Source: a virus
Direction: 5' to 3' (one strand)
Length of the DNA: 64,000 nt
IMG/VR virus record: IMGVR_UViG_3300042389_001478
Location: 32,001-96,000 of that record
Of this stretch, positions 18,784 to 50,500 are shown piece after piece (the stretch's first letter is position 1; each line of letters begins with the position of its first letter). The notes under the pieces are model-generated. The model searched no databases. It worked only from the letters and a program-made list of their open reading frames with translations, and had not been told where the DNA came from. Made by a program: the position numbers and the translations under genes.

Positions 18784-19938
18784 ATGGCTATTGTTAACAT
18801 CACACCACCATCTAATAAAATATTAGTTATTAATCAATCCATAGATGGATCAAATAGTAATGGCGTTATAACTACTAATTTAAAAATCAATGATGGTTTT
18901 GAGAATACTGTTGGGGTTGTTTACATAGAGCGCGGATTACAAGGCTTGACTGGGCCTAGCGGAAATATTGGACCAGCGGGGCCAGTTGGGCCTCAAGGAG
19001 AACCCGGATCCATTGGTTTACAGGGACCACCGGGTAGCGGACTAACTAAATTACTAGTTGGAAATATTGAGATAAAAGAAAATGAAATTCTTAATATTAC
19101 AGGGAACGGCGGCACTACAGTTACTTTTTATCCTAATTCTAATACTATTGATATTAGTTCTGATATTATAAGTAATAATTATTCATTAGTTGGTCATCGT
19201 CATAATACTAGCGATATAAATGGCTTCGGTGAAGCAGTAGATGATAGAGTTGCTGGTTTATTGACGGCTGGTGACCACATCTCTTTACAATATAATGATC
19301 AGGACTTAAATAATCTCGTTGTTTCTACAACCGGACTAGAAATTGGAAAAGATATTCAAGAGTATAGTTCCAGATTATCCAAGCTTGGTAATTTATCAAT
19401 ACACTCTGGGTCTATTATATATGGAACAGCCGTAGATCAGTATGGCTTAATTAACATTACAGAAGCTGGAAAAATATTAATAAACGATGTCGATGCAGCA
19501 GCACAAAGACGCACCCTTGAATTAGGAGAAATTGCCACCCACGACTCCTCTGAATTTGCTAAACTAGCTGGAGGAAATAATTTTACTGGCACACAATCCC
19601 TAGGAGACGGAACGCTAACCAGATTCTCGGCATCCCTGAATAACCAGAGTTCTAATTCATATATTATTACACAAAGCGATAATGGAAAAGTGCTTAGCTT
19701 TAACAATGATGCTACCTTCATAAATGTTAGTTTTAGCAATTCATTAAATGTCGGGTTCAACTGCCTAGTAACACAAATGGGTTCTGGACAAGTAAGATTT
19801 TCAGGAGTACAACTAGGACACAGACTTGGTCATAATAAATTAGTGGGTAAGTATTCTATAGCAACATTAGTAAAAACTACTCCAGATATTATTTTGATTT
19901 CTGGAGATACTACTGATGCTGAAGGTGGTCCAGGATAA
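18784..19938 (+). CDS. Collagen-like tail fibre protein
   Basis: GLQGLTGPSGNIGPAGPVGPQGEPGSIGLQGPPG triplets; GHRH motif; AKLAGGNNFTGTQ; common fibre C-terminal domain (SYIITQSDNGKVL...QMGSGQV...GKYSIATL). Confidence 0.8.
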   Translation: MAIVNITPPSNKILVINQSIDGSNSNGVITTNLKINDGFENTVGVVYIERGLQGLTGPSGNIGPAGPVGPQGEPGSIGLQGPPGSGLTKLLVGNIEIKENEILNITGNGGTTVTFYPNSNTIDISSDIISNNYSLVGHRHNTSDINGFGEAVDDRVAGLLTAGDHISLQYNDQDLNNLVVSTTGLEIGKDIQEYSSRLSKLGNLSIHSGSIIYGTAVDQYGLINITEAGKILINDVDAAAQRRTLELGEIATHDSSEFAKLAGGNNFTGTQSLGDGTLTRFSASLNNQSSNSYIITQSDNGKVLSFNNDATFINVSFSNSLNVGFNCLVTQMGSGQVRFSGVQLGHRLGHNKLVGKYSIATLVKTTPDIILISGDTTDAEGGPG

Positions 19939-22032: not shown

Positions 22033-22170
22033 AATTAGGATATAATTGAATGTCAATGCCAAGAAGGGGTACTATGATATTGGTGCTGGATGCAAATGAA
22101 TGACAGAAATGATCTAGTTTGGCCCGTATTTTGGACAAAACCCACTTTGTTAAATAAGACTACATCGACG

Positions 22171-22179
22171 GGGTATTAA
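22171..22179 (+). promoter_or_regulatory. Candidate late-promoter motif GGGTATTAA
   Basis: In the 168-nt intergenic gap, 30 nt before the ATG at 22201. Followed by AGA as in the 5088 copy (GTATTAAAGA is identical). Confidence 0.45.
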
Positions 22180-22200
22180 AGATAAACACTGGAGTTAATT

Positions 22201-25200
22201 ATGGCCACATTATTTTTTGAAGGATTTGAAAAAGGCGTTATTTTAAATAGCCTAGATTCTAGCTATTGGTCTAGCCAATTTAAAAGATTTCCCCAATATA
22301 GTTTTGGTGGATATGTACCATACACAGATCCTTCTCGTAGCTATTATGTTAATTATGCTTCAATATCTCCTAATAATGGAATACTACCTGATATAAGTTA
22401 TACTAATAGTTATTTAAACAGCAACAACGGAATATATTATCCCGGCAATGGTTATCCAGGATTTGGACAACCTCCAGGATTTTTGGCATTAACCAATGTA
22501 GAAGTTGAAAATCCAGACTCAGTAGAATATCCAACATATCTACAAATTAGCGGATTTCCCAATGCCAATGGGAATAAAACTTACTTTGGATTTAGGTCCT
22601 TAGGACTAGAAAGTAAGCACAGAGATTACTCAGACTATCCTCATGCTCACACTCTATTTTCTTTGTGTAGTGGCAATATTACCGGATTGGTGGTTAATGT
22701 GGTAAAACCAACAGGAAATACCTTAGCCTCTCTGAATAATGAAAAAACCACACTAGCCCTAGAAATACAGCAAAACAATCAATCAATTGGCTTTTTTGAT
22801 CTTAATATTTCGGGTGTACTCAGTAGATATCGAGTAGCATCAGTATTCTCTACAGGAAATAAAGTATTAACAATAGCAGATACTGTTGCTGGAAATGACA
22901 TAAACCGAGAGGATGCCTTAATAACTAGATGGATTCATTCTGAATTTTTAATAGATGATTCTAATCCCTCGCAGTCTTACTTATCAATTAAGCTGGAAGG
23001 TACTGACCTAGGCATTATTAATAATGATATAGAGAATAGAAATGACTGGGATATTGAGTTGCCAATTAGTGGTTTTAAATTCAACAATATTAAATTTTAT
23101 AATAGAACATATTCTTCTACATTAGAACAAAATATCACCTACGGAGGTGCGGGTGGCTACTATAGTTGGCCTGCGATGCAACCCGCTTCTAGATATTATC
23201 TTCATGGGAAAGCATGGCTATTAGACGATATTACTTTGATAGATAACGCTGGAGATCCATCTTTTTATGTTGGCCCAACAGCTAAGATACTATCATTCAA
23301 CCCTGGATATTATACTGGTGGATATGAAGGACCTAATTTAAGAGATAATGTTGGAGAAACTGATGGAGTATTAGATTGGACTTCTACTGCTGTAGTTAAT
23401 GATGGTTTCTCTTTCGGGAGCCCGACTAATCCATCGCCAAGCACTCGCAAGGCTTTATTGGCTATAGATAATGCTAATGTTATAGAATCAGTTACCAGTG
23501 GCAATATTGCAGCAGTAAATATGAACCCCCTATATCTTAAGTTTTTAAACGTTTCTGACGACGTGGTTTCGTATGACCCAGGATCAGCATGGAGATGGGG
23601 ATTAAATGATGCTGTTGGAGGAATGAAAGTATACAATACTGCTCGCAAAAACTATTTGGATACTAAATTTATTAATGTTTTTCGTTCAGGAGTTAGTGAT
23701 TCATTAGAAAATAATGTTTCTCTATTACTCCATGCGGACTCTGCTCCAATAGTAGACTCCACTAAATTTCCTAAAGCAGTTAATAGTAATAGCGTTTTAG
23801 TTAGAGGAGACAAATTCAAGTTTGGCGGAGGAAGTTTGTATTTCTCCAATAAAGACTCTTCTTTGTCTGTTAGTCACCCAGACTTAGGAAATAGTCCTTT
23901 TACCATAGAAGCTTGGATATATTTCCAAAATCATTCGCAAATAGTAGCATTATTTGATAAGACCCCAGCCAACTGGCCTTTAAAACCATATGAAAATACA
24001 ACTTATGAAATTCCTGGTCAAGGAACATTTCAAGCACCCTACTATAGTTTTGCGGCAAATACTAGCGGTATTATTTTCAAGAATAGAGACTACTGCGATA
24101 AGATCTTACCTTTTGATGCTATCGCAGAAACAGGAGTCTGGAACCATGTTGCTATCAGCAGAACATCAGACTCTAATCTAGTATGTTATTTAAATGGGAT
24201 TAAGGGAAATTTATATAATGTTTGTAATTGCGATTCTCAACTTTATCTGAGAACAAATGAATATCAAGGAACATCTAATGATATTTATTCGTTAAATACT
24301 TTATATAGTAGTAATTTAACTTCTGTTTATAATTTAACTATTGGTAAGCCAAGGACCTCTCTGCTTAAAGATTCTTATTATAATAATGTTTCACTGTTAT
24401 TAAAATCAGAAAATAGCGCTATTACAGACTATTCTTCAAATCCTAAAACTATTTCTAATAGCGGGGTTGTTTTATCTTATGATCATTCAATATTTGGAGA
24501 CCGAAGTCTCAAGTTGACTAATAGTAGTTATTTAAGTTGTAATAATTCTTCGGATTTTAATTTTGGTAGCGATAATTTCACGATAGAATTTTGGGTTTAT
24601 CTTGGGGATCCTAATCCTACTAATTTTACCCAGCGATCACTATTTAGTAGTAACAGTATTAATATCGATTTTAGAAGAACAAACACCAACGATTGCACCG
24701 GCAATAACGGTAGTACTTATGGTATGCTAGTATATGTTTTGGATAGTCAAGCAAATGCATATTATTTGACTAGGGGATGTAGCGGAACTTGGTGGCAGAA
24801 TATTGGTAACCCCTACTATGCTTGGGATCAACTTAAATACCCATGGGTACATATTAGTATAGTCAGAATCAATGGTATGATGTATGCATATGTTAATGGT
24901 AGTACAGCTATAGGAAATAGTGATCCTATAGCATATTCTGCAAATATACCATTTAATATTGATGTTAATAATTTTACTCTAGGATCCAGTTCTCCTGGCA
25001 ATTCCTTGAATTGTTATTTGGATAATTTTAGAATTACTAAGGGAATTGCTAGATATGCCACCAGAGCCAATAGCTTCAGTCCTCCGTATCAACCTTTTGG
25101 TACTAATGTTACAATACCAACAGATCCTGGGGCATTTATAGACGATTATAGAATTACTTATGGCGCAAATAGATATACTGATAATTTCACACCACCAGAC

Positions 25201-25371
25201 TATCCTCTTAGAGCAGAAAGAGACGACTATTATGATATAGGCCCAGTACATAATGTTAATAAAACCACCTATAGGAATTATCAGTATTACTCATATAAAA
25301 ATCCTGCCACTAACCAAAATTGGACGATGCCTCAAATTAATAATTTGATTTTTGGAGTGAAAAAGCTATGA
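22201..25371 (+). CDS. Virion protein with two nested LamG domains
   Basis: Outer domain MATLFFEGFE...NPATNQNWTMPQINNLIFGVK. LamG starts NVSLLLH (23704) and DSYYNNVSLLLK (24370). Two closing D(N/D)(F/Y)RIT.G..RY motifs. Confidence 0.8.
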   Translation: MATLFFEGFEKGVILNSLDSSYWSSQFKRFPQYSFGGYVPYTDPSRSYYVNYASISPNNGILPDISYTNSYLNSNNGIYYPGNGYPGFGQPPGFLALTNVEVENPDSVEYPTYLQISGFPNANGNKTYFGFRSLGLESKHRDYSDYPHAHTLFSLCSGNITGLVVNVVKPTGNTLASLNNEKTTLALEIQQNNQSIGFFDLNISGVLSRYRVASVFSTGNKVLTIADTVAGNDINREDALITRWIHSEFLIDDSNPSQSYLSIKLEGTDLGIINNDIENRNDWDIELPISGFKFNNIKFYNRTYSSTLEQNITYGGAGGYYSWPAMQPASRYYLHGKAWLLDDITLIDNAGDPSFYVGPTAKILSFNPGYYTGGYEGPNLRDNVGETDGVLDWTSTAVVNDGFSFGSPTNPSPSTRKALLAIDNANVIESVTSGNIAAVNMNPLYLKFLNVSDDVVSYDPGSAWRWGLNDAVGGMKVYNTARKNYLDTKFINVFRSGVSDSLENNVSLLLHADSAPIVDSTKFPKAVNSNSVLVRGDKFKFGGGSLYFSNKDSSLSVSHPDLGNSPFTIEAWIYFQNHSQIVALFDKTPANWPLKPYENTTYEIPGQGTFQAPYYSFAANTSGIIFKNRDYCDKILPFDAIAETGVWNHVAISRTSDSNLVCYLNGIKGNLYNVCNCDSQLYLRTNEYQGTSNDIYSLNTLYSSNLTSVYNLTIGKPRTSLLKDSYYNNVSLLLKSENSAITDYSSNPKTISNSGVVLSYDHSIFGDRSLKLTNSSYLSCNNSSDFNFGSDNFTIEFWVYLGDPNPTNFTQRSLFSSNSINIDFRRTNTNDCTGNNGSTYGMLVYVLDSQANAYYLTRGCSGTWWQNIGNPYYAWDQLKYPWVHISIVRINGMMYAYVNGSTAIGNSDPIAYSANIPFNIDVNNFTLGSSSPGNSLNCYLDNFRITKGIARYATRANSFSPPYQPFGTNVTIPTDPGAFIDDYRITYGANRYTDNFTPPDYPLRAERDDYYDIGPVHNVNKTTYRNYQYYSYKNPATNQNWTMPQINNLIFGVKKL

Positions 25372-26303
25372 GCGATTTTACCAGAATCAGATTACGACGA
25401 GCTAGTTCAACGGAATGGCTGGCTGTTGATCCATTACTATCTTTGGGAGAAGCCGGATACGAAACTGATACTAAAAAACTCAAAATTGGTGATGGTAATA
25501 ATATTTGGTCATTGTTAGACTACGTTAAAGTAGATACATCAGAAATAGTTTTTCCTTCAATACAGCTTGGAATTTCTGATGGTACAGATCAACGAATGGG
25601 AATTAACTTATCTCAAAATGAGTCATTCAATATTGTTGGTTCTGGAGGAACTGATGTTCTGTATGATGACTATACCAAAACATTGACTATAAAAAGCTTA
25701 GGCGACGGATCTTCATTAAGCAGAAATGATATCCTGAATGCATTAGGATATATTCCACATAGATCTGGTAACTATAGTTCAGTCGATCATAATCATAGCA
25801 TATCTAACATTAGTGGACTACAAGCTATTCTGGACAGCAAACAATCTAGTGGCAACTATGCGTCAGGGAATCATACTCACTCTATGAGCATCGGAAATGG
25901 AACATACAACACCATATCATATAGCGTTGGAGAAACCTTAAACGTTATTGGTAGCGGCTATACCTCAGTATTATTTGATGAATATACAAATAGTATAACT
26001 ATATATTCTACTGGTAATAGCGGTGTGATTTCATTAAATAATAGAGCGGGCGATGTTATTCTTAATTTTACTGATATTACAAACGCCATAGGATATGTTC
26101 CACAGCCTGTCGGATCATATTCGTTGTCCAGTCATAATCATTATGCTTCTGGTCTACTTCAATTAGAAAATATCTTTGAACAAAAAACCATAGGTAGCGC
26201 TGGTGCTTCTGGAGTAGCTGGTCAAATTTGCTGGGATCCAGCATATTTATATCTTTGCATCTCAACAAATTCATGGCATAGAATCCCACATTCTGGCTGG
26301 TAA
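25368..26303 (+). CDS. Tail fibre protein with Mtd_N/hyaluronidase-N-like anchor domain
   Basis: RIRLRRASSTEWLAVDPLLSLGEAGYETDTKKLKIGDG..W..LDY signature; LGYxP repeats; three HxH motifs; C-terminal GQICWDPAYLYLC..NSWHR. Confidence 0.8.
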   Translation: MSDFTRIRLRRASSTEWLAVDPLLSLGEAGYETDTKKLKIGDGNNIWSLLDYVKVDTSEIVFPSIQLGISDGTDQRMGINLSQNESFNIVGSGGTDVLYDDYTKTLTIKSLGDGSSLSRNDILNALGYIPHRSGNYSSVDHNHSISNISGLQAILDSKQSSGNYASGNHTHSMSIGNGTYNTISYSVGETLNVIGSGYTSVLFDEYTNSITIYSTGNSGVISLNNRAGDVILNFTDITNAIGYVPQPVGSYSLSSHNHYASGLLQLENIFEQKTIGSAGASGVAGQICWDPAYLYLCISTNSWHRIPHSGW

Positions 26304-32579: not shown

Positions 32580-35500
32580 ATGGCAAAAGGATTTAATTTA
32601 ACAGCGGAAATTAATTTACGAGGACCATCTAATATTAGATCGGTTGTTGCCGATATTAAAAGACAGGTAGGGTCTGTTAGTGTTGATGTCAGTCCAACGC
32701 TCAATAGGGCTTCTGTTAGAACTATTGCTAATGATATTAGGCGTCAGATAGGAAATTTATCAGCAGAAATTAATGTAAGAGCTAATGCTGGCTCAATTAG
32801 AAACTTATCAAGAGATATTCGACAGAGACTGGGAACATTAACTGCTGATGTTCAAGTCAGAGCAGATGCCTCGTCAATTAGAAGATCTGTTGCTAATATA
32901 AGATCTCAATTTAGGAATATTAGCACCAATGTCGCAGTATCTGCATCGCCATCATCTATTAGACAAGCATCGTCAGCAATTAGGAGACAGCTTGGAAATA
33001 TTAATGCAAATGTCAGGGTTAATGTTTCCGCAGGATCAGTAAGACAAGCAGCAGCCAATATTCGTAGACAACTAGGCTCTATTAACACCACAGTTAACGT
33101 TGGAATCAATGCAGCGTCATTACGAGGCATTGGGGCATATACAGCAAATCTTACAAGATTAAATGCAACTTTAGCTCAAACTACAATTACTGCTACTAAT
33201 GCTGCCGGAGCAATTGCAACTTTAACCGCGGCTATGGGCGCTGCTGGACGAGTAAATCTTGGTCAAATCAATGTTAATCTTGGTAATGCTGGTAATGCTG
33301 CTAGAAATACTGCTAATAATATTCAGTTAGCTGGTAATGAAATTGAAAACTTCGGTCGTCAAGCGGGCTTGGCTATAAGGCGTTTTGCTGCTTTTAGTGT
33401 TGTTACGGGTGTGGTCTTTGGTATTACTAATGCTTTTAAGAATGGCGTTAGTGCTTTTATTGAATATGATCAGCAGCTTACCAGAATTAGCCAAGTTACC
33501 GGAGATGCCAAAGAAAGTCTTGGTAAAATTAATAGTACAATTAGTGAGCTCTCAACAAGCTTAGGTGTTTCATCTAAAGAATTAGCAGCAACATCAGTAA
33601 CGTTAGCTCAGGCAGGTTTAACAGCACGAGACACCGAGACTGCATTAAAGGCATTGGCCTTAAGTGCATTGGCTCCGTCTTTCGATGACATGAATCAGAC
33701 GGTAGAAGGCTCTATCGCATTAATGAGACAGTTCGGCATTTCCAGCAAAGAACTAGAAGGATCATTAGGATCAATCAACGCTGTTGCTGCAAAGTTCGCT
33801 GTCGAAGCTAGCGATATTATTACTGCCATTCAACGTACCGGTGGTGTGTTTGCTGCTGCTGGTAAAGGAGTTAGTGAAGGCACTAATGCTTTAAATGAGT
33901 TCATTGCTGTATTCACTAGTATTAGAGCAACAACTCGTGAAAGCGCAGAAACCATTGCTACTGGCTTAAGAACAATTTTTACAAGAATTCAGAGAGCCGA
34001 TACTATCGAGGCCCTCAAAGAGTTCGGCGTTACATTAACAGACTTAGAGGGTAAGTTCGTTGGACCATATATTGCTGTTCAAAGATTAAGTGAAGGATTA
34101 TCAAAACTGGATCCTAGAGATTTGAGCTTCTCTAGAATTGTGGAAGAGCTTGGTGGATTCCGACAGATTGGCAAGGTTCTACCACTTATTCAACAGTTCG
34201 CCACCGCACAAGACGCTTTGAGGGTTGCCCAGCAAGGACAAGGATCATTATCGGCCGACGCAGCCAAAGGACAAATGGCATTAGCAATTCAAATAGCAAA
34301 AGTTAGAGAAGAATTTTTAGCATTAATTAGAAGTGTTGGAAATACTGATAGTTTTCAAAATATGGTTAAGGTTGGACTAGACTTGGCCAGTGCCTTAATA
34401 AAGGTAGCAGATGCTGCTAAAGGATTAATTCCATTAGTTGGATTATTTGCGGCGTTCAGGGGAGCTCAAGCTATTACTCAATTTGCTGGTGGTTTTGGAA
34501 GAGGTTTTAGAGGAGCACCAACACAAAGAGCCTCAGAAGGTGGCCCTATTAGACACTTTGCTTCTGGAGGCTATGTTCCTGGTTTTGGTAACGGAGACAC
34601 TGTTTCTGCAAAATTAACTCCTGGCGAGTTTGTTATGAGCAAACCAGCTGTACGGTCTATTGGAGTTGGTAATCTTAGTAGAATGAATAAAGGCGATAGA
34701 GCTAGCAAATTTGATAAGGGTGGTCCAGTAACAGTATCCGCCTTATTAACTAGATCTGGAGGACCGTCAATCAGAAATGCTATTAATACTACTAATTTAG
34801 AACCAGATGATACAGTATCGATAAATATTGTTCCTAAACAAGTACCACTAAACCAGACCGACTTTTTAAATATATGGTTACGAGGTAATTCTTCTGCTAA
34901 AAAAGGAACAGGAAAATTCAAAAATTATGCTGGAATTAATGTTAGTCAAGAGAATAGAGATAGATTAAAAAATTTAGCAGGAAAAAATACAAAACAGCAA
35001 CAAGAAATTAAACGTGGTTATGGGGCCGGTATTTCTGAACAAGTGAGTATGCTACAAAGCGCGGAAGGAAGATGGGGGTTAGCATATGAAGAATTTTTGA
35101 TTAATAAACTTCGAGCTAATTGGACCAAAGCTAGTTCTAAAAACAACTACCCAGTTGATCTTGTTCAAAAACTAACAAATAATTCTATAAAGCGTATTGG
35201 AGAGGTTAAATTTCGCACGACACCTACTGAAGATATAGATCTTATTAGTAAGTTATTAAGATATCGAATAGAAAGAGGATCTATTAACAGATACTTTAGA
35301 GAAAATGAAGAAATTCCCAAAGACTTGGATAAAAATATAGGTTCGTTAGATTATTTTTGGGCTGGAAACTATAAAAAACAATTCTATAAGTTTATAGAAG
35401 AGAGACAAAAAATACAGGCTCCTGGTTTTGTTCGTGCGGCAGCTGGTGGACAAATACAAAGATTCCCTAGGGGCGGAAATGTTCAAAAACTAGCTAATGT

Positions 35501-38500
35501 TGGAGTAACCAAGGAAAAGAAACAGACTAATATAAATGAAACTGCTGCACAAGCTCTTCTCGAACAAAATGCAGGTAAATCTCCTGTTATTAGAAGAATA
35601 TTAAGTAAACCAAAAGCTGGTAGAGATTTTGCACAAATACTTAAAAAACAAGGAGTGACTATACCACCATTTCCAAAATTTGTGGGATCTGGAATGGCTA
35701 ACGCGGTTTTTGATATCGGAAATAAGAAAATGTTAAAAGTTTCTCTCACGGGCTTTGGCGATAATATGATGGCAGGAAATTTCTTTGGAGAGAATGTTGC
35801 TGAAAAAATGGGTATGACAGGTAATTATCAATTACCGATGGGTGTTCCTGGAGTAGCTGGATATTCATCTCATATTGATGCGGGAGTCTTGTCGTCTGCT
35901 ATTCAAGACAAAGCTGTTATGAAAATAAAAGGAAGAAGTAAAAATAAAGATGCTAACGAGCTAATCAAGCGATTGCGTAAACAAGAAGGACTTACAGGGA
36001 TTGATCTTCATAACGACAATATAGGATATAGATATAATCCCAAAACTAAAAAACAAGAACCAGCAATTATAGATGGTTTAGTAGTTCATGATGATAAATT
36101 ACCTCCTGGATTTGATTTTTCGAATCGTTTTAAAATTGGTGGAGAAGTACAGAGATTCCCTATTGGTGGAGAAGTTAGAAGAACCAAAAAAGAACGATAC
36201 AAAAAAATATCAGTAGCAGATGCAGAAAAGCTATCAGCTTCTCAGATTATAACCGGCCTTACTACAGGACAATCCGCTCCAGCTAGAGTAGGGGGTATGG
36301 ATGTTGTAACTATGAGAAAGATTCTCGGCCAACGCAATAGAACACCAGATGATCAACGCAAGAGAGATGAAATTCTAAATGCTTATACTAGAAGAATAAA
36401 TGGAGAAGTAGATCAACGTCTTGGAGTTACTAAGCAGAGACAAACAGCAGGATTACTATTTGGTATTGCTGGTTTGTACGGGTCTCCATTTGCCCCAACC
36501 GATATGGTTGTTGGAGATAAAGGAGAACTTACAAAACCCACAACCGTTCAGGTAATGGGTGGTGTTCCTCGTAAAAAATTAATGGATAGAGCTAATCTAA
36601 GTATTAATGACCTAGACATTTATGGTAAAGATTTTAAAAAGTCTGTTAAAAAAGGAGCTAAAAGATTATTAGTATCAGATATTCTTAGCCAACTAGGTTT
36701 AGGCAAAGCTCTTTATGCTGACTTTGATCGAACATTAGTGTTTGGTGCTGATGATCTTCCAGATATCCAGTCTTTTAATGACAAGAGAAAAGTGGGCAGG
36801 CAATTATTATCAAAAAAAGCTAGACTGAGCGTTCTTGGTCAAAAATTAAGAGATTTATTAGTAGCTAAGCCACAGCTCACACCATCTGTAAAAATATTAA
36901 CAGCAAGACCACGCTCTACACTTGGTCTTTTACAAGCTTTTCTTAGACGACAAAATCTTAATATACCTTCTTCTCAATTTACTGGGGTCGGTGGTAATAA
37001 TTTAAACGAAGCAGCAATAGCAAAATTAAAAGCTGCAGAATTACCTTCTGGATCAGTTTTAGTTGATGATAATGCAAAAAATATAAGAGCAGCAGAGCTA
37101 AAATCTAAAGCACTAAAAGCTCAAGGCGAAGCTGGTATTACAACATTTAGATATAAGAGCGCTAGGAGCCCACTAGATAAGCCGGGCGAAGATACTGCTG
37201 CTGGTCTTGCGTTCCAAGAATCATTAAGAGGACTTCTTTCAGAAAAAAGAGCAGTGGCCGCATTTGCTGAAACAGGAGGGAAGAGCATAGATTTCCCGCT
37301 AGGATTAGGAAGACGAGCAGCATTATTCGGACTAAAACCAAATATACCCACAGATGCTAAAAGAACATTAACTGGTCCATCAACAGCAAAAGAGAATATT
37401 ACTAATTATTTGAAAGCTAGATCATATTCTGCTGGCGGAGATATTCAAAAGTTTCCACAAGGAGGAACACCATCGCCGGGTGGACATTCCTCAAATATTG
37501 TACCAGCATTAGTTAGCACTGGAGAAGCTTACTTTCCACCAGAAGAAGCAAAAAATATAGGCTTAGACAAATTAAGAAAAATGAATCAAGCAGATCGTAA
37601 TGGCATGAAATCCTTTGCTCGGGGTGGTGTTAGTGTTTTCAGAGGTCCGGGATCAGGAACTAGTGATAGCATAGGACCAATAGGTTTGCCAGTAGGAAGC
37701 TTTATCGTTCGAGCAGCTGCAACAAAAGCTTTGGGTCTTAGTTCGGGTGGATCTGTTGGTAATGTACAAAAATTTGCCGCAGGAGGAGCTGCTCAAAGAT
37801 TATTTGTTGGAGGATTATTAAATCCACCACCAGCAGCTAGGCCAGATCTTGGTGGTATGAATGATTCTGAAGCTCGAAGAGTTGTTGGAGTAGTTAATAG
37901 CGTTAATCAGCAACTAGGACAATTAGCAGGAGTATTAGAAGAGCTTGGTGTTGCATCAGGAGATACTGCAAGGTTAATGCAAAGAGGAAGTCAGGCTACT
38001 TATGCTCAAGCTATTCAAGCGACAGAAGCTGATATTAGACGAGCCAGAATAGCAGGAGCATCAGCTCAACAAATAGCAGCTGCAGAAAGTGTGCTACGGG
38101 ATATTAGACAACAAGCTGATAGAGATATCAGAGCAAGAAGAGCATCTGTAGATACTCCGGGCGGAGCTAGAGCTTCCTTGGGTAGTTTAGGTGGACAAGA
38201 TTTACAGAGAATAGATTCTAGAGCCGATCAGCTACGTCAACAAATGATGGAAACAGAAAGAAATCGACTACAGAACCAAACTGTAACTCGCGGAGGAAGA
38301 ACAACAGCAAGATATTCTAATGAACAAGTCGAAGAAAGACTACAAAGACGAGCAGGAAGATTTAATAGACAATCCTACGAACAAGCAACTACTCAAGTTA
38401 CCGGCGGACGAGTCGATCTTGGTGCTGTTGGTTTAACTGGAGATGATGCTCAAAGATATATCCAACAAAGTATGAGAGACCGTAATACTTTAGCTCAGAT

Positions 38501-41500
38501 GGATAGAGCATATATACCACGACGAGCCGCACAGATTAGACAACAATTAGAAGCAGAGCGTGGTGTCGGAGCAACAGCAAGAGAAAGAGCGGCATTAGCA
38601 CGACAAGCATTACGCATGGCTGAGCAAGAGGCAAGAGACAGAGCCAATACTGCACGAGCCGCTGCCAGAGCCGCTGGAGCAGCTGGCCCCGGAGGAGGCC
38701 CAGAAAGCGGTATGGCTAGAAGCATGGGCATGGCCTTTGGTCTACAGATGGTAGGCTCCCTACTTGCACAACAGATTAATCCAGAATCTAGCTCTTCAAA
38801 TGCTCAGATATCTGCTGGTTTACAAGGTGGAACAAACATGCTGGCTACTGGCACCATGATTGGTAGTGGTGTGATGGAAATGTTCCCAGCAATGACACGA
38901 TTACTAGGTCCGATAACGATTTTAACAACAGTCGCACTAGCTGCTGGTCAAGCTTTAATTGATGCTCGAAATGCCGCCATAGAATTTGAGAAAAAATTAG
39001 CTGACAAAAGAGTTCAAGATGCAATGGAGAGAGTTGGTCAAGGCTTTGATAAACTAAGTAAAAATATCAAAGATATTAAAATTCAAGATGATATTACTAA
39101 CAATTTAATTGAAGCTAGTAGAAATGTTAGAAAATCAGTAGAAGCAGATAAAACAACAGCCAAGGCTTTTTGGGCTAATATTACTGATGTTTTTACCTCC
39201 AACACATCATCAAACTTAGCTGAGGCTGCGCAAAATGTATATAACTCCAAGCCAGCTGCTGGCAGAACAGACGCTGATAGAAATGCCTTAGCTGCTGTCA
39301 CAATAAACACCCAAGCTGCTGCAGCTAGCAGGAGCAAGATTTTAGAAAAAGAGGGGGTGTCAGCGTATCTTAGTACTACTAGCATGGGACAATTTTTAAG
39401 TGGAGCTGGCTCACAATCATCTTCTAGAGCTGAAGAAAGAAGATCATCGCTCTCTCTGGGTATGATACCGGAAACAGCCAGAGAAGACTCTAAAAAATAT
39501 GTTGAAGTCGCACAAAGTATGCAAAGAATTATTGAAGATAAATTAAGAAGTGGCTTGAGTGTTAGAGAATTATTAACAGCACCAAAACATGAATTTGAAC
39601 AAATTGCTAGAACAATGGCCATGGCAGACCAAGCCACCCATGCTAATATATTAGCAATCCAACAAGACACTAATCTAACCACAGCAGAAAAAGAAGCTAA
39701 AATCAAAAATATTGCTACGCTTTATGCTGAAGACAAGATTCGCAAATCTGCTAAGTCCGTGGACACGGAAAAAGCGAGTAAAAACTTTGAGAAGAATATT
39801 AATAATATGAGCCGTAGTTTGGAAAGAATGTTCCAAAATATGGATCAAGCTATTGAGAGAACAAGCTTTAGTTTAAGACAAATGTCTCAAGATATGGATC
39901 TCATATCAGCATCTCTTGGTGGACAAGCTAAAACTGGTGATACATCTCTTAAGTCCATGAATATTTTACAAAATCCAAGAGCATATGGTGGACTAGAAAC
40001 CAATGCTGCTAGGGATCAAGCTTCTTCCTTCTTTACTGGGGAACGTAATTTAGTTAAGGGACTATTATCAGTTGGAGATAATTTAGAAACTAGCATAATG
40101 TCTAGTATTAATAAAACTCTTACTGATAATCCAGCAGCTAGCAATGAGCAAATTGGTATCAATATTGAAAAACAAGTTACTAAACAAATTGCTAAACTAC
40201 AACTGCCTCCTGATGTTGGGAACAAACTTGGAGAACAAGTTAAGACCGCGTTGGACGAAATGAGAAAACGCGGAGATGAGAATCTAAATTTTGATGATTT
40301 AATGGAAAAAATCCCAGGATTAAGCAAGGTTCTGGAGAGCGGCAAAAGAGCACAAGAATCTGCACTTAAAGCACTAGAACATTGGCAGAGTTCACTAAAT
40401 TCGTATTCAGAAAAAATTAATCAATTAATAGATCTACAAATCGATACCAATGAAAGACTACGAAGATCAAGTGAATTGGTGATTCGTGGCAATATGGAAG
40501 TATCTCGCGCCCTTGGTAAAGATGTTAGTGTTTCATCTGTTAGATCAGCAAGAAATGTTGGCATAGCTCAACAAACTGGTGGCTTAACGGATGCTGATGC
40601 TATAGCCAAAAACATAATGTCATTAGAAGGCCAACGACGATCACTAGAATCATCGGCTAATTCTGCTGGTAATAGAGGATTAGCTGGGGCTAATGATTTT
40701 GTTAAATTTAAGAGCGGACTATTAGACACTAATGTTGCATTAAGAGAAAATATTGCAGCATTAAAATCTTTAGCAGAAAATGGCGATGTTGCTTCAGCAG
40801 CATTAGGAAAAATACAAGAAGCCCAACAGAAACAAGCTAGCAAAGTTGGATTCATTGAAAAGCTAGTAACTAGCACACCAGAAGAAGTTAATTCTTTAGA
40901 ACGTGCTATGGCTAGATTACAAAATAATATAAATGGTCAACTAAATACTATCAACAACAGTGTTGGTGCACAAAAGGCATATAATGATGCTATAGCGCAA
41001 GGAGCCACAAATGCAGAGGCCATGAGCGCAGCACAAGTTGCTTTTGCTGGCGAAAGAAAAGAAACACTAGGCGCTCTAAATGATTTATTGCCATTTTTAA
41101 GTAATAATCAACAGGGCAATAATATTAAAGCTAATGTACTAGAGAGTATGGCTAGAGAGTCTGGTGTTGGTATTAATCCAATGATGCAAGAGGTGATTAA
41201 TTCTTTAAGAAATCCACAGGCCGACCCTCAAACTCAAGCTGCTATGCAGCAATATCAACAGGCAATTAGTGAACAAGCTAGAGCTAATACTTTACTAGCA
41301 CAACTTAATAGTACTTTGGCTAATGATATTGCTACCAAATCAGCAGCAGCATTGAGCCAAGCTTTAACTGGCGCCTCGATTAAATTTCAGAGCAGTCAAT
41401 TAGACGATATTGCTAAGAATGTTAGATCTATTTCATTAAGAGGTGGTGATCAGCCAGTACCAGCAGCTGGAAAAGCCAATGGTGGCATGATTTATGCTGC

Positions 41501-44500
41501 CGCTGGTACAATGGTTAATTTCCAGCCCAAAGGAACCGACACTGTACCAGCAATGCTTACTCCCGGCGAATTCGTGGTCAACAGAGCTGCTACATCTCGT
41601 AATCTTCCATTATTGCAAAGCATTAATAGTGGTGGCTATAGTAAGGGCGGCAGCGTTAATTATTATTCTTCTGGTGGATATGTTAGTAGCGTATTTAAGA
41701 GTGAGTATTTAGACTCCAAGAACTTAGAGAATAGCGAAAAGCAATATATTGATCCAGAAGATAAAATAATAAAAGATATTATTAGTGGAGACGATAAACC
41801 ATTTATGATTAGGTCTGGATGGAAAAATTTCACTAGACTACAATCACCAGCTAACCAATATCACAGTGCTCAATTTAAAAAGACTTATGTTGGTAGAGTC
41901 GGAGGTTATTTTGGGTTTGGTCTTGATGAAACAAACGATAAAATTCCATTTGAGACCAGTGGTAAATTAGTACCTGGGTCTGCTCCGATCATTGATATTA
42001 ACTCCATAGATGGTGAATATGTTTATAAAAACACACCACCTCCTAATTTATGGCCAGCTGGTAATAGAGAGCTAGGATACTTATTATCAGATAGAAAATT
42101 TAATACTAAAAATATTGCTAAGAATGATTTGTCTAAATATAGAGATATTATCAATGGGCTTATTAGTGTTGTTCCTCCTGGTAGAGTTTGGGGTACAGAT
42201 CCATCAAGCTTTGAATTTAGTTCTCCAGATGATCTTTCCGGCGGCCAGAGCGGCTTTCCATATAATCCTAATTTAAGCAGCGCAAAACCGGTAGGCTTGA
42301 TTTTATCTAGAGGAGCTACTGATATAGGACAGCAAGCCACAGAAAGCACAGATGGAATTCAGAAAATCTTTAATAACAGCAGAGCATTTACCGGACAATC
42401 AGAAGAAGCTTCAGATAGAGCTGGAAATACAACTAGAATATATGGAGATATACAAGGAACGGTCTCTGCTGGGAAACTAACCAACGCAGCAAAACTTGCT
42501 CAAAGAGGTTTTATTAACGACGTTCCAACAGATAATGACACATTTAAATGGATTACTGAAACCAAAAAAATTAGCGAACTAAGAGACACTCAAAAAGAAA
42601 ATCTATCTCTACTTAAAAATACCACCACAGATATTTTTGGTAATAAAATTAATTGGCTTAAAAACACTGAAAAAAATAATAAACTTATTTCTTTACAACA
42701 AAAACTACAAAAAATTTATGAGGGTGGATCATTAATAGAAGATCTTGATGTTTCAGAAAGAGAGTTGATAGATAATACTCAGCTAAGACTAGATGATGCA
42801 TCCGGTAAGTTTTCATTGTTATCTAAACAATTAGAACCCCAATTAGCTAAAAGAGTAGCAGAGCTATCGTCTAGACCAATAGATCAACAGCTTCCAAAAG
42901 ATAAAGAAAATGCTAGAATTGCAACACTAACAAGAATAGGTGGAGCAGCAGGCTGGGCAGACGGAGATCCATTCCCGATCAACTTTAGTGAAAACGGACT
43001 AACCAAACCAACAGTCTCATTTCCATGGATAGCTAATATTGAACCAGAATTTTTCTTACAAAATATTAAAGAACAACAAGAGCAACAAGCTAAAGACCGA
43101 GCATCTGGTAAAGACTATGGGTTTAATATTAGCTCACTAGGATTACAACCGTATGCTGCTAAATTACCGGCACCACTAGACAAAGTAAGCTTCAATTATA
43201 AGGCTGCTTATACCAAATATAGTGGTAGACTATTTGATTTAAGACAAAAAGAACTAGATAATACCAGACCATTAAATGACGCTTTTATTATTGACCCTAA
43301 GCACGATGATGCTCTCAATATATTTAAAAATGCTAATTTCCCAGACAAATCCTTCTTTACAGGATTTCCCGGACCATACCAACCACAAGATTTAGCCAAG
43401 AGAATAAGCGTTAAAGATCCTCAGTCCATTCTAGACTACATGCAAGCTTTACGCAATAATGATCCCAATGCCGATGCTTTAGCTGGAAAAATTAATGGGG
43501 TATCTTTAGCTTTGGGACCAGCCCTGCTCAAGGTTATGAATGATAAGCCATTATATTTACCTGACGACTTATATTATGGTATTGATAATACTTTTCAAAA
43601 TCTTGATATTAGTCCATTTGTAGTAGCATCAGCAAAAGATGCTGCCGGGCAACTTGGTCGTTTAGCCAAAGAAAAAAGCTCCCAGATCAATACCCCAGGA
43701 TCAAAAACTCAAAGTATAAGCGAAGCTGATCTTGGTCCAACAGTGCAAAGAATAGCACAAGCATCTTTAGGCATTTTTGGACGTAGACCAGGAATACCAT
43801 CCGGATATCTTTATAGTCAATTTGGAAGAGCATTATCTAATATTAGTGATCCAATCAAAGCTAAGAATACGGCTTCTGGTATCAGTGGAGTTTTTAGTAA
43901 TTTAGTCAAACAAATTCATGGCATGGCTCCCAGAAATTCAAGAGAATTTGCAGCACTAAGAGATTCCAATATTTTAGCAACAGGCGCCTCTGCTGTTTTT
44001 AACAAACTAGCTTCTGGTAGTACTAATTATATTAAATCATTTTTAGGTGGTGGATCTTCTATAGAAAATCTCTTTAGGTCATTAGGTTCTGGATCTTTCT
44101 TTAATGAGATGGGTAGTCAACAGTTTAGTGAAGATTTTACTAAACAGCTTGGGGCTGATCTTAAGGGAAGCAAATTAGCTAAAATTGGAGCTGATGGCTC
44201 TATCGATTTAACAGATATGAATGAGCAGGATGTTCCTAAGAATTACCAAGGATTAGTTGATCTTGCTATTAATCCTTATCATGAATTTGGAAATAGATCA
44301 GTTCGTCAGGGAATTTTCCAAAAATTAATGACAGACATTCCTAATTTTAGAGCTAATCATAATGTTACAGATCCAAAAACTGGCACTATTTTAGAAAAAC
44401 GACAAACCCAACTACCATTATTTGGGCCTGCTGCTCTTAAGATGATAATGACTAATTTGAATAATTTATCACAATGGTATGGTGGAAATGGTGCTTGGGC

Positions 44501-47500
44501 TGGTCAAGACTATCTTAATGAGAACGACCCTGCTACTACTCCAAATGAAAGAGCAGAATTCTTAGCATCTAATTTCGATGGTGCTTTATATACTACAGCA
44601 ACAGAAGCCCACAGACAACTTGGCGGATTAGCAAACTTTGGAGATATTCCTAATAGAGAATGGCTTATGGCTAGAGGTCAGGCAAAGATGCCCGATATGA
44701 AACCAGTAGTTAAACTTGCTACTGGTGGTATGGTTTATGCGTCTAATGGACAGTATGTTAATTTCCAACCAAGAGGAACTGATACTGTTCCTGCAATGTT
44801 AACGCCAGGAGAGTTCGTTGTTAATCGAAGTGCTACTCAACAAAATCTTCCGCTACTAAGAGCAATTAATAATGGAGCTGATGCTTATAGTATGGGCGGT
44901 GTAGTTTACGCTGCTGGAGGATTTGATCCTTCTCGAATGGCCCAAGGAGCATATCCGTCACAAAGTACTAGTCCTAAGCCATCAATGTGGAGTAGAATGT
45001 TTGGTGCTAGAAATCCTGGAGCTTTTAGACCACGCGGTATGTTTCCAACTTTTGGTGGTGCCGTCGGACATATGGAAAATGGGCTACACAAAGCTTTTGT
45101 TAGAACATCTGGATGGGCTGGTAGGCAGGTCGGAGATGTGGGGAGAGCATTTGGTAACATTGGACATGCTCCGATCAGACCAACTGCTATCCTTAATCAA
45201 TTAACCCAATGGCAGGCTGCGCAACAAGGGGCAATGTTTCCTGCCAGCACAAGTGGTGCTGCTTACCAGAGAATGCAGCAAAATGTACTTAAACAGCTGG
45301 CACAGTACAGTTCGGCTGCAACAAATTATAATGCTAGCAATACCCTATTAGCCAGAGCAGGAAGAGGAGCAACTAGTTTAGCCACTAAGGCCGTTGGAGG
45401 TACAGCAGCTTTCAACTCTGGAATTAATATATTGACTGAAGGATCAAGCGCTCTATATGGTTTTGGTAATGCTGCTTTAGGAGGACGTAATACATATGTA
45501 GATAGTAGACGAGAACAAGCTGCTCAAACCAATAATACTATTTTAGGAGGAGCAGCTACAGGATTTATGTCTCCAATTACCACTATGGCCCAGATGGGTT
45601 TTACTGTTGCTGAACTTAATGAAACTAGGAGAAGAGCTAGTAAAGGAGAAAGTTTAAATAGTGAAGGACGAAAGATATCTGTATCAAACATTGCTAATAG
45701 ACAATATTCTGGAGATGAAAGACATTTATCTGGATTAACAGCAGTAGAAGCTACTTATATTAGACAGATCATAAATTTAGAAAAAGCTTTAGCCAAAGAA
45801 AAAGTTGGGACTAAACGGTACGACCAGCTACAACAAAATTTAAATGATGCAAAATCTAGAAATGTTACAGAAAAAACTCGTGGTATGCTATGGGGTACCA
45901 CAAAAACTACTAGCAGAAAGGCCGGTCTTAGTAGTGGTGACGACGTATTAGACAAAGCTATTGATCAACATAGAGAATATGAGGTTAGATTAGAAGCACA
46001 AAGAGTTGCTCAGGCAGCTGCAGAAAAAGCAGAAGAAGCTAGACTAAAAGCTCAACAACAACAAGCTGAAGCTCAAAATAGAACAAGAGCTGCTGTTACG
46101 GTAGTGTCTAATGCTGGACAAGCAGCTTATAATTTTGGGGTCTCTATGTTTAATAAATTCAAAGAAGATAGAAAGAATGCTATAAATGCTGATAGATCTA
46201 AGAGAACAGCAGCAGCATCTCAGTATTTAGATAAGCCCGCAGTGCCAGATCTAATTAAAGATAGTCAAACTTTCAGAGACGAAAGACAAGCTGCTATCGA
46301 TGAAGTTCGTCGTTTGGATGGGGTTTATCAACAAGAGTCACAGCTAAATAAAAATAGAGGAGATAGCGAAGCAGAACTTAAACGATTAAAGGATTCATAC
46401 GACAAAGAACGAGAAGCCGCACTAGCAGCTGTTGCTAAAGTTGATAGTAAAATTATTGACAGAAATAAAGAAGCAGAAAAACTCAGCCCAGACGAAAGAC
46501 AAGCAGCATGGAAGTCATACAATGATAATCAAGCTAAAACAGCCAAAGATGAAGCATTAGCTCAAGCAAGATACCAAAGTAGAGTTGCTAAAACACAACT
46601 TAAAAAACAGGCCGACGGTCAATTGGCCATAGCAGAAATTACTAGAGTACCCAGACCAACAAAAGATATGAACCCTGAATCATTCTTTAGATGGTCAGAA
46701 AATGCTCGTAAGACATTAAATAGAAAATTCAAGCTGAGCGGAAATGATGAAAAAGACATGGCTATTTTAAGTGCTGCTGGATTATCTCCAGAAATAGCTA
46801 AAGAAGTTATCCAGCCTATCTCTAAAGAGAATAGCTCACTATTATTAGAAATGATGTCAACTAGCGGTAAATATAGTAAACAAGAACTAGGACTATTACA
46901 GCTTAGTGGAGATCAAATAGAACAGTTAACTAGAGCTAGCTCTGGTATGGGTGGCTCAGCCACCGCACAAATGACACTAGACGAAAGAAACAAAGTTCTG
47001 AAAAAACAAAGGGGCTTGGCAGTTAAAACTCAAAAGCAATTGAGTAGAATTGAAAAACAAATTGAGGCTGCTGAAAGACTTGGCCCAGAAGGAAGAATAC
47101 GTCGTCAATCCGCTATTCAACAACAACTATTAAGACAAGGATTAGTATCAGCATCTCAAGATGGTCCTGCTAATCAAGCTAGACTAGAACAATTAGGAAT
47201 GAATAAGGAAAGAGTTGGTTTCATATTCCAACAGCAAGGAAATCAACAAGGTGCTCCAGCAAATGGTATGAGTAACGGAGGAGTGGTTTATGCTGCTGGC
47301 GGAACATTGATTCCATATTCTCCAAGAGGAACCGACACTGTTCCTGCTATGCTAACGCCCGGAGAATTTGTTGTTAATGCTAAGGCCACAAGTCAAAATC
47401 TTCCATTGTTACAAAGTATTAATAAAAGTAGTGGAGGGGTAATTTATCGAGCGGAGGGTGGCGGAAGTGACGCTTTCTCTAACAGACAGCCGACCTCATC

Positions 47501-50500
47501 TGCAGAAAAATCAGGATCGATTAGAGCAACAGAATTAAATACTAGACTACAACAACAAATAGCTAATAATACAAAAAATACAGCCGATACTGTTCCAACT
47601 ATAGCAAAAATTACTAGTGAAACAGCAAATAAGCAAATACCGACATTATCTAATAAAACATCATCATTAGAACAAAATAATGCTAAGGCTTTTTCCAACA
47701 TAAATACAAAAGCTACAGATATTAATAAAATAACTTCAACTATTCCACAATTTGACAAAACAGCAAATGAAAAATTAGATGAATTATTAAGAAGAACTGA
47801 AGGGTTGCCAGAGACAGTTGCACAAATTGTTACTTTGATTATTGGGGATATACAACAGAGACAGCCTGGAGGTAATTTTGCAGGATTTGGGTTGAATCAA
47901 GGCCCTAATGCAATACAAGCAATAAATGATGCTATTAGAAATAGGTTTGATAATATTCTTAATGCTGCCGCTTTACAGATGGGCAGGGGCTTTAGTAGTG
48001 GAGGTATGGTCTATGCTTCAAATGGAATGATGATTCCTTATGAACCTAGAGGTACTGATACTGTTCCGGCGATGCTAACTCCGGGTGAGTTTGTGGTGAA
48101 CAGAGTTGCTACCCAAGCCAATTTACCTTTATTACAAGCTATTAATAAGAGTAAAGGTGGGAATATCAAAAAGCTTGCTGAGGGTGGAGTAGTTTATGCT
48201 GCTACTGGCGGAACAATGCCAACTAAACCAGACGGTTCTGCTGATACTAATTTTGATGCTCGCAAAGCTCAACGAAAAGCATCTTTAGAGAGACAGATTC
48301 GAACACAGGAAGAAAAAGAATTTAAGAAATTAGGTATCTTATACAATGATACCACAGACAAAGAAGATATCATACAAGCTCTTAAAAAACAAACTCAGCC
48401 TTATCCTTATCCTTTAAATATTGATTATTATCTAAGACAATTTAGTAGGGATAAAGCATTTGACATAGACCTAAAAAGATTTCCAAGAATTAGCGAAGCG
48501 GCAAAATCAATCTTAGCCAAACAAGAACAACCAAAAGCTAATCCTTTTGATATGGGTCAGCAACCAGCAGCAACTCCACAATCACTCTCAAGAGGTGGAG
48601 TAGTTTATGCTTCTGGTGGCGGAGAGATGACAAAAATTCCAGAGCCACCAATAGCTATGCCATTCGGATTTGCTCCACAAAAGGGATTTGCTGTTCCTTT
48701 GGATAAAACTAAGGCCATACAAGCACATCAACAATCAGAAAAATACCCTGATCCTTTTACTCCAGAAGCTGATAGGGCCTGGAGACAATTTGACTTGAGT
48801 CCAGTAGAAAGTATGGCGGATGATGCTCATGAATTTTTACAAGAAAAATTAGGAGGAAACAAACAAATTCCCCTTAATGGTCCACCCATGCCATTTGGTG
48901 TCGGTCCTAGAGCTAGGCATATGGATAACACTGTTGCTGGACAACTTCAAGGATTGTATTATTCGTTAATACCTGATAATACCAAAGGTGGTCAGGGTTT
49001 AGAAAATTATTTAGACCAATATAAAAATCATTTTGCTCCAAACGCACCATATGGGGCTCAGCCGATCTTACCAAATAAAGATTCGTTGATGCCTCAAATG
49101 AAAGCTAAGGGTGGAGTAGTTTATGCTCAAGAAGGATTTGATCCATCAAGACCATTAAATCCTATGATGAATCGTCAAGGAAAGGGTTCAGCTTCCACAT
49201 TAACCTCATCTCCAATTAGTAATTTTAATAATGAGAAGTTAGCTGAAGAAGGTAAAGCTTTTATGTACGGAGCTGCTAAGTCCGTACTTCCAGGTTTAGC
49301 TGGTTTGGGTGCTGGACTTTTAGGACTACCCACCACGGGTCCTGGTGGATTTGCTATTGGCTTAGGAGCAGGGACCGCAGTATATCAAGCTCAAGAAAAT
49401 TATTTGAATGCTTTTGCTCCAGAAACAAATAGACAGATGAAAGATATCACCGAGGAGCACTGGCAGGCTTCATTATTGGGATCTATAGCTAGTGGTTTTG
49501 GTGTTGATAAGGCGGGTCGTAAGCTACTCTCTCCTTTTATGAAAAATACTCTCAGAATGCCCGCCACACTTCCTAATAATAATGCTTCTGTAAGACCAGA
49601 TATTAAGAGTGCTAGTCAAGAAGCTATGGAGGAATTTTCTTTAAGAAGTAGACCAGCAGCTAGCGCCCCATTAGATGTACCAAAAGCTGATAAAGCTTTA
49701 CCGCTTCTTCGTAGTCTAGAAGAAAAGGGTGTTATAAAAACTACTCAATCATCATCAACATCTAAATTTAACAGTGATAACAGACGAGACCTATATCAGA
49801 TTGATCAAATTTTATATCACGGCACAGGACATACTATAGATGATATAGATCCATCCAAAGGCGGAGGTATATTAGGCGGTGGTTTCTATACTGGATTTGA
49901 AGGTCACGAAGGAATCGCTGCAAGATTTGCAGCAATGGGTAAAGCAAATAAGCATGTGTATCCAGTAAGAGTCAGTGGTGGTATAGGTGATTTTCCTGAG
50001 GCTACAGAAACTCTTGGCGGTAACTCTAAAATTTTATCAGTCATAGAAAAATTATTTACTGAACAGAACTTATCTAGACAAACTCGTCAGTTCTCAGGCA
50101 AATGGGGGAAAACAGGTCCTATTTATGACAACGTAGATTTAAATCTGAAAGACATGACATTCAAAGACGTTGTTGATTTGCTTAAGAATAGATATTCTGA
50201 AACCATAAAGAAAACTCTAGAGCAAGAAAATGGTATTTCTTTATCAAAAATATCGCCTCAAGAAATTGCTACAAGAGCAGATAAATTAGGTGAAGAACAG
50301 GTAAGACAACTATTGGTTAAAGCTGGTATACCAGGAGCCAAAGATACAACAGGAAAATTATCGGGTACTGGCGAACCTATGGTCTCCATATATGATCAAA
50401 GCAGGCTAAGCAAAGAAGGAAAACCTTTTGTTCCAAATAGTTTGAAACCCCAGATGAAAGCCAATGGTGGTGTAATTTATGCTCAAGATGGTATGAGAAT

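Follow-up and report, generated by a model that had tools for sequence, protein, structure and literature searches.

The window analysed in our study is a stretch of 64,000 nucleotides, covering bases 32001-96000 of a 192,497-bp virus record of IMG/VR (IMGVR_UViG_3300042389_001478), which was rated complete by CheckV and belongs to an uncultured phage. One uninterrupted open reading frame (ORF) of the window was found to encode a giant tape measure protein (TMP) of 6,899 amino acids (aa), and within it a cassette of about 230 aa was predicted to carry the fold of a protein kinase. The features of this gene are collected in Table 1, where nucleotide positions are those of the window and amino acid numbers are those of the 6,899-aa ORF, called the query TMP hereafter. 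Judged by its sequence, the ORF is a tape measure protein: it matched the PhageMin_Tail model PF10145 in the Pfam scan, scoring 90.2 bits where the cut-off is 33.2, the genes upstream of it gave tail-fibre and baseplate-like PHROG matches, and JGI lists its relative P0002 (4,808 aa) as a 'TP901 family phage tail tape measure protein'. The relatives, of 4,808-6,542 aa, also matched PF10145. The public gene call of the query TMP (P0007) is 6,681 aa long, its start lying 218 codons past the ATG at 32580. We preferred this ATG over the shorter public gene call because the N-terminus common to the relatives, MA.GFNLTAE.NLRGP, is conserved.

Table 1. Features of the giant tape measure protein gene and of the cassettes predicted within it (positions of the window).
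Feature	Position	Strand	Amino acids	Basis or remark
Giant TMP gene (P0001)	32580..53279	+	6,899 aa	One uninterrupted ORF
PhageMin_Tail core (PF10145)	33537..34115	+	320-512	Pfam, E 2.1e-25
Upstream linker GGQIQRFPRGG	35445..35477	+	956-966	Motif scan
Cassette with predicted kinase fold (~230 aa)	35487..36179	+	970-1200	AlphaFold2 model, structure matches, 14 homologous copies
Three-helix N-terminal extension	35538..35648	+	987-1023	Model helices 18-27, 33-39, 44-54
Gly-rich loop GSG, between strands 1 and 2	35685..35693	+	1036-1038	G1038 invariant
Candidate ATP-anchoring Lys of MLKV, strand 3	35736..35738	+	K1053	Invariant; model strand 81-87
Gln of IQDK (aa 1108-1111), end of last N-lobe strand	35904..35906	+	Q1109	Invariant
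Predicted catalytic loop DLHNDN	36003..36020	+	1142-1147	D1142 and N1147 invariant, His variable
Candidate metal-binding Asp of IIDG (starts at aa 1163), DFG equivalent	36072..36074	+	D1165	Invariant
Downstream linker GGEVQRFPIGG	36138..36170	+	1187-1197	Motif scan
HAD-fold phosphatase-like cassette, with DFDRT, TARP and VDD	36669..37157	+	~1364-1526	AlphaFold2 pLDDT ~76-96

The cassette was flanked on both sides by a linker of the pattern GG-x-[IV]-Q-[RK]-F-P-x-GG. An original prediction, made from the letters of this DNA, had described a tape measure protein with a protein-kinase-like domain inside it, in which the motifs GSG, LKV, IQDK, DLHNDN and IIDG follow in this order. All five were found in frame in the single ORF, between aa 1036 and 1166, and the numbering of the catalytic aspartate as D1142 agreed with the ATG at 32580. 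The span that had been flagged for the domain, 35670-36110, was found to hold the motifs, but the actual unit was larger, extending from aa ~970 to ~1200 between the linkers that begin at aa 956 and 1187.

An AlphaFold2 model of the cassette was built on a checked alignment of 9 rows and reached a predicted local distance difference test (pLDDT) score of 72.3 and a predicted template modelling (pTM) score of 0.70. The elements of the model followed each other in the order of three helices, three strands, a helix, two strands leading to Q1109, a long helix, the D1142-N1147 segment, a hairpin and D1165. The predicted N-lobe consisted of five strands (model residues 64-68, 72-78, 81-87, 126-132, and 135-141) and a helix (92-100), with the GSG between strands 1 and 2, and the predicted catalytic loop D1142-N1147 came after the helix 152-167. 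The motifs thus lay on the expected elements, namely the loop that joins the first strand to the second, strand 3, the point where the last N-lobe strand ends, and the loops past the long helix. The model therefore showed the traits of the protein-kinase-like (PKL) fold: a five-strand N-lobe with a Gly-rich loop, a strand-3 Lys, a D-x4-N after the long helix and a putative metal-binding Asp. After D1165 only ~20-35 residues were left before the linker and the model contained no long helix there; going by the model, the helical C-lobe (helices F to I) and the activation segment are missing from the cassette.

Comparison of the model with known structures gave kinases throughout. In the Foldseek search against the PDB, all of the listed matches were kinases, including PINK1, AceK, CK1, and RIO2, with E-values from 8e-5 to 2e-3, which are moderate, and TM-scores of ~0.4. 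The VIA-align re-ranking placed Rio1 of A. fulgidus (1zth_B) first, with a Z of 9.6, a root-mean-square deviation of 3.8 and 167 residues aligned. A VIA-align run over 48,161 chains that bypassed Foldseek had nothing but PKL-fold kinases in its top 50; RIO1 reached a Z of 9.5, the minimal effector kinase OspG a Z of 7.2 (134 of 169 residues aligned), and the small-molecule kinases APH (4pdy), YihE (1zyl), and amicoumacin kinase (6sum) a Z of 6.6-6.9. The matches in BFVD were phage and giant-virus kinases, including T7-like ones, at E-values from 2e-6 to 1e-4, together with several phage proteins of 146-213 aa. Structure prediction, which had been proposed as a check of the kinase domain, thus gave a kinase fold, and the reading of the cassette as a kinase fold is supported by the model. 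The description of a protein-kinase-like domain within a TMP held, resting on the PF10145 match, the kinase-only structure matches, the motifs on their expected elements and the invariance of the K, D-x4-N, and D residues among the relatives.

The relatives of the cassette were few and were all of one kind. When 1.84 billion representative proteins were scanned in full with HMMER, 5 relatives were obtained, in giant proteins of 4,808-6,201 aa or their fragments, and word-indexed searches brought up 4 more giant TMPs, among them two additional ones with PF10145. A search for related loci, with the module or with a two-row alignment as query, gave the L002 contig and no other. The back-translated pattern GNYQLPxGxxxVxGY added the loci L027, L028, L029, and L030 from viral and metagenome contigs; none of 185,579 species genomes matched this pattern, and a tblastn search of the 231-aa module against 50,697 GenBank phage records gave no match. 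No free-standing relatives of 103-408 aa were found, and the size range of 409-2,000 aa yielded just the two fragments already known. Altogether 14 homologous copies were obtained, every one in a giant TMP or a fragment of such a protein. They formed three subfamilies, 23-42% identical to one another, the lowest pairwise identity being 23%.

Only 23 columns were invariant across the 14 copies, and these included G1038, K1053, Q1109, D1142, N1147, and D1165. Variation was seen at the initial G and at the S of GSG, at the DK that ends IQDK, and at the His of the DLHNDN loop. At the catalytic loop the relatives read DIRDDN, DAGAVN, DADGSN, DAHGSN, DVDPSN, or DLVRGN, and D-x-H-x-x-N was kept by four copies besides the query. 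Between the Asn and the metal-binding Asp the spacing was 13 residues in the 10 shortest copies, 12 in P2a, 14 in P2b, and 18 in the query and P8a, the query carrying a five-residue insert between N1147 and D1165. The motif around the metal-binding Asp was [IL]D[GA] in all 14 copies. An acidic residue (Asp/Glu) was present at aa 1067 or 1068 in 12 of the 14, and Gly-Asn in the query and P8a. The motifs alone are within chance expectation for a protein of 6,899 aa, whereas their conservation is beyond it.

The cassette was not tied to one place. P0002 and P0008 were found to contain two kinase copies each, the linkers flanked the cassette on both sides in P0002, P0004, and P0009, and in P0008 they immediately preceded the second copy. 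The upstream neighbours of the cassette varied between TMPs, and P0006 contained ~540 additional residues with an HExxH between blocks that are adjacent in the query TMP. By these comparisons, the kinase cassette acts as a movable, linker-bounded module.

The placement of the module among known sequence families was mostly negative. In the Pfam scan at E <= 10 the 231-aa module gave noise only (PilN, AAA_lid) and no match to APH (PF01636). PHROGs and NCBIfam at E <= 10 gave no relevant match, the PHROG of the T7 kinase included, and the PDB sequences gave no meaningful match to the module or to the alignment profile. The RIO1 model PF01163 had no match in the virus genome at E <= 10, and Kinase-PolyVal (PF18762) was found neither when the whole virus genome was searched at E <= 10 nor when the module was scanned with Pfam. 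The ESM Atlas gave leads only, namely clusters in which Phage_T7_kinase made up 10-11% of the members, Kinase-PolyVal 80% and Pkinase 12%, with scores of 0.90-0.91. The pairwise hhalign comparison with T7 gp0.7 (P 0.023) paired FKMLGNG...VIKV with KFVGSG...MLKV, FDMHSGN with IDLHNDN, and YITDPV with AIIDGL. A profile of eight T7-like kinases, compared with the catalytic segment by hhalign, gave a P of 0.0036 and a score of 27.6 over a local alignment of 34 columns, while 40 column shuffles scored 13.0 +/- 2.4, with a maximum of 18.4. To judge from these alignments, the link to the T7 kinase is real but remote, and is confined to the catalytic segment. The DxHxxN loop had been described as matching the kinases of the T7 gp0.7 and APH-like type; the DMHSGN of T7 indeed aligned with it, but the His varied among the copies and no APH or T7-kinase sequence model matched. 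The module thus lies outside the T7, RIO, APH, and Kinase-PolyVal sequence families as tested.

Among the known systems, the cassette was closest in organisation to the kinases of polyvalent proteins. A clade of these kinases has lost the whole C-terminal subdomain with the active site intact, and is marked by a Gln that is conserved in the final strand of the N-lobe and by a Glu preceding strand 2 (PMC5512222; Iyer et al., 2017). The cassette likewise has no predicted C-lobe and keeps the residues for ATP binding and phosphotransfer, and it is likewise a putative kinase within a giant multi-enzyme phage protein among virion genes. Q1109 was invariant in the cassette family, a hallmark that is compared here by the description in that paper, and the Glu before strand 2 (GSGGEN) was present in 9 of the 14 copies, Ala standing there in the query. 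The cassette differs in its carrier, which is a TMP, a term absent from that paper (PMC5512222), and in that every relative found was part of a giant TMP, or a fragment, of an uncultured phage. Since PF18762 gave no match while the C-lobe loss and the active site agree, the cassette is read, from sequence and model together, as a probable new sequence family of C-lobe-less polyvalent-protein kinases, here within a TMP.

The kinase of phage T7 is a broad anti-defence enzyme, which counters many defence systems by mass phosphorylation; it also phosphorylates phage proteins, and in its family the motif DPV replaces DFG (PMC13645617). With T7 gp0.7 (PHROG 2828 / PF27024), a phage PKL-fold kinase, the cassette shares the D-x-H-x-x-N that the T7 protein has as DMHSGN, the spacing of 13 residues from Asn to Asp that is found in the 10 shortest copies, and the alignment of D1165 with the D of DPV. 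In contrast, the cassette copies read [IL]D[GA] instead of DPV, and the cassette is without the shut-off or DNA-binding C-terminal domain. The T7 kinase is expressed early from the genome, whereas the cassette is part of a putative virion protein. The RIO kinases, represented by Rio1 of A. fulgidus (1zp9/1zth), were the best structural match (Z 9.5-9.6, 167-168 residues aligned), and the alignment with RIO1 began at model residue 17 and so covered the N-terminal helical extension; sequence identity was only 13-14%, and the cassette is shorter past the metal-binding Asp. The effectors OspG of Shigella and NleH (4q5h) are likewise very small kinases with a reduced C-lobe and are injected, but they are free proteins delivered by type III secretion, and no sequence similarity to them was detected. 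In the Thermus phage P23-45, gp96 is a TMP of 5,002 aa fused to a virion RNA polymerase that transcribes the pre-early genes (PMC10770324; Chaban et al., 2024). It is similar to the query in being a giant TMP with a built-in enzyme, which in gp96 works on entry, before phage gene expression. It differs in that its enzyme is an RNA polymerase, N-terminal and experimentally shown, whereas the cassette described here is a predicted kinase, internal and placed among other cassettes.

A second cassette of the query TMP was found to begin ~160 aa after the kinase cassette and was predicted to have the fold of a HAD phosphatase. Foldseek on the HAD model gave the HAD of Legionella Lem4, phosphoserine phosphatase, and Pnkp1 at E-values from 1.5e-4 to 5e-4, and also the phosphatase of T4 Pnkp. 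The columns DFD.T, TARP, and DD were invariant among the relatives. The order of kinase followed by HAD was also found in P0002, P0006, P0009, and L026; in P0008, which has two kinase copies, no HAD was detected. The gap of ~160 aa between the two cassettes (window 36192-36668) had an AlphaFold2 pLDDT < 50, as did the ~100 aa past the HAD (window 37158-37454), where IDFPxGLG...PTxxKRT was conserved.

Taking these results together, we read aa ~970-1200 as a compact PKL-fold kinase carried as cargo by a polyvalent TMP, which would enter the host and phosphorylate proteins early; we put the probability of this reading at about 0.6. Its gene context, its predicted fold, its conserved catalytic residues and its modularity are what the data show; its use of ATP, its protein substrates, its delivery and its timing are what we infer. 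Several points weigh against it. None of the kinase family models matched the sequence. The alignment under the model was shallow (9 rows), and pLDDT was > 60 in only 2 of the 5 AlphaFold2 models. The spatial clustering of the K, D, N, and D residues is deduced from their positions on the predicted secondary structure. The acidic partner of the Lys in helix C was replaced by Asn or Gly in the query and P8a, for which E1072 or E1076 may stand in in the query. In ordinary kinases the C-lobe helices serve for substrate docking, and their apparent loss leaves substrate binding unexplained. The lumen of the tail tube may not accommodate three TMP chains with folded domains of 230 aa. Finally, the periplasm contains no ATP, so the kinase idea fails for a module that stays there.

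Four other explanations were considered. The substrate of the kinase might not be a protein but a sugar, a lipid, a nucleotide, an antibiotic-like molecule or a nucleic-acid end, and the kinase might then be paired with the HAD by the end-healing logic of T4 Pnkp. The absent C-lobe takes away the usual platform for protein substrates, the small-molecule PKL kinases (APH, YihE, amicoumacin kinase; Z 6.6-6.9) scored little below the protein kinases, the kinase-then-HAD order is kept in the four relatives named above, and the phosphatases of Pnkp1 and T4 Pnkp were among the matches of the HAD model. However, the best matches of the cassette were protein kinases (RIO1, OspG, T7-like), and the sole signal at the sequence level was that of the T7 kinase. 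The top matches of the HAD, a Legionella effector HAD and phosphoserine phosphatase, suit protein or amino-acid substrates equally well, P0008 keeps two kinase copies with no HAD detected, and we know of no polynucleotide kinase with the PKL fold; a non-protein substrate is therefore considered rather unlikely. The loss of the acidic residue of helix C in the query and P8a and the truncation of the C-lobe would also agree with a pseudokinase or with a nucleotide-binding structural piece of the TMP (a plug, a spacer or a binding site) that has no catalytic role in the host, the more so as TMPs are mainly structural. Pseudokinases usually lack at least one catalytic residue, and here the four catalytic residues were invariant over three subfamilies of 23-42% identity in which most other positions vary, a pattern expected from selection on catalysis, so that we give this explanation only a small chance.

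An active kinase might instead have its role on the virion itself or inside the cell that produces it, where the TMP or tail proteins, for example, might be phosphorylated during assembly, and would then not be an injected effector; that the T7 kinase also phosphorylates phage proteins (PMC13645617) speaks for such a role. The cassette is, however, modular, duplicated and reshuffled beside effector-like modules (the HAD, and the HExxH modules of relatives), which is a better fit to cargo, and the enzyme fused to the TMP of P23-45 works after ejection. We regard an assembly kinase as unlikely. Hardly credible is a chance resemblance of the motif pattern in a domain that is not a kinase at all: although no sequence family matched and the Foldseek results were modest in both E-value and TM-score, the structure matches listed in three independent rankings were all kinases, the motifs lay on the correct structural elements, and the conserved columns were the catalytic ones.

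Under the preferred reading of the cassette as a delivered kinase, it would be one linker-bounded cargo unit of the polyvalent TMP. Because TMPs leave the tail at ejection, the kinase module would be carried into the host with the DNA or ahead of it. Inside the cell the module would use cytoplasmic ATP and would phosphorylate host (or phage) proteins ahead of any phage gene expression, probably for takeover or anti-defence. Such early action is suggested because the TMP-fused RNA polymerase of P23-45 works on entry (PMC10770324). We put forward more tentatively, as possible but doubtful in its full form, that the tail-carried kinase is threaded into the cytoplasm, phosphorylates host proteins, defence proteins among them, before phage transcription, and is paired in a fixed order with the HAD phosphatase. 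If this were true, the cassette would be the pre-expression counterpart of the early-gene action of the T7 kinase. The T7 kinase has to be expressed first, whereas a kinase built into the TMP could act earlier, at the stage in which the outcome is settled by restriction and abortive-infection systems. Such a module would be the second enzyme class delivered by a TMP, after the virion RNA polymerase of P23-45, and would link the idea of the "polyvalent protein" to a defined delivery vehicle. A very small kinase core without a C-lobe bears, in addition, on the minimum of the fold that is required for catalysis.

The length of the query TMP was also considered in relation to the tail. A TMP of 6,899 aa, if helical throughout, would imply a tail of ~1 micrometre; therefore either the tail is extreme, or the TMP would be largely cargo rather than ruler. 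The tail-sheath model PF04984 (Pfam) had no match in the whole virus record, which hints weakly at a non-contractile tail. Upstream of the TMP and in the same orientation, a second giant ORF of 4,221 aa was found at window 6103-18768 (+). An ORF of 384 aa at window 18784-19938 (+) matched collagen repeats weakly (E 1.3e-4, short of the cut-off of Pfam), and it was followed by the tail-fibre/baseplate-like ORFs at window 19951-26303.

Other stretches of the query TMP also resembled modules. The module before the kinase cassette, at window ~34700-35440 (aa ~707-955), was 58% identical to aa 566-825 of P0006 and contained a PVDL...GEVKF pattern, which resembles a PD-(D/E)xK nuclease. The sequence GTDTVPAMLTPGEFVVN was found five times in the distal two thirds of the TMP, at window 41532, 44775, 47328, 48051, and 51861 (aa 2985, 4066, 4917, 5158, and 6428, respectively). 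Every copy was preceded by GGxVYA; a sixth TPGEF was present at aa 680, and the relatives were found to carry 0-6 copies. At window ~49260-50450, the pattern YHGTGH...GGGFYTG was located between two PQMKA[KN]GGV[VI]YAQ[ED]G repeats; the stretch had no Pfam match at E <= 0.01 and resembles a module of the ADP-ribosyltransferase type. The query TMP contained no HExxH anywhere in its sequence. Zincin-like modules with HExxH (LYHE.THQ) were found in P0004 (aa 2125), P0006 (aa 1154), P0005 (aa 165), and P0009 (aa 4275 and 5527), and in P0006 and P0005 the HExxH was located directly upstream of the kinase cassette.

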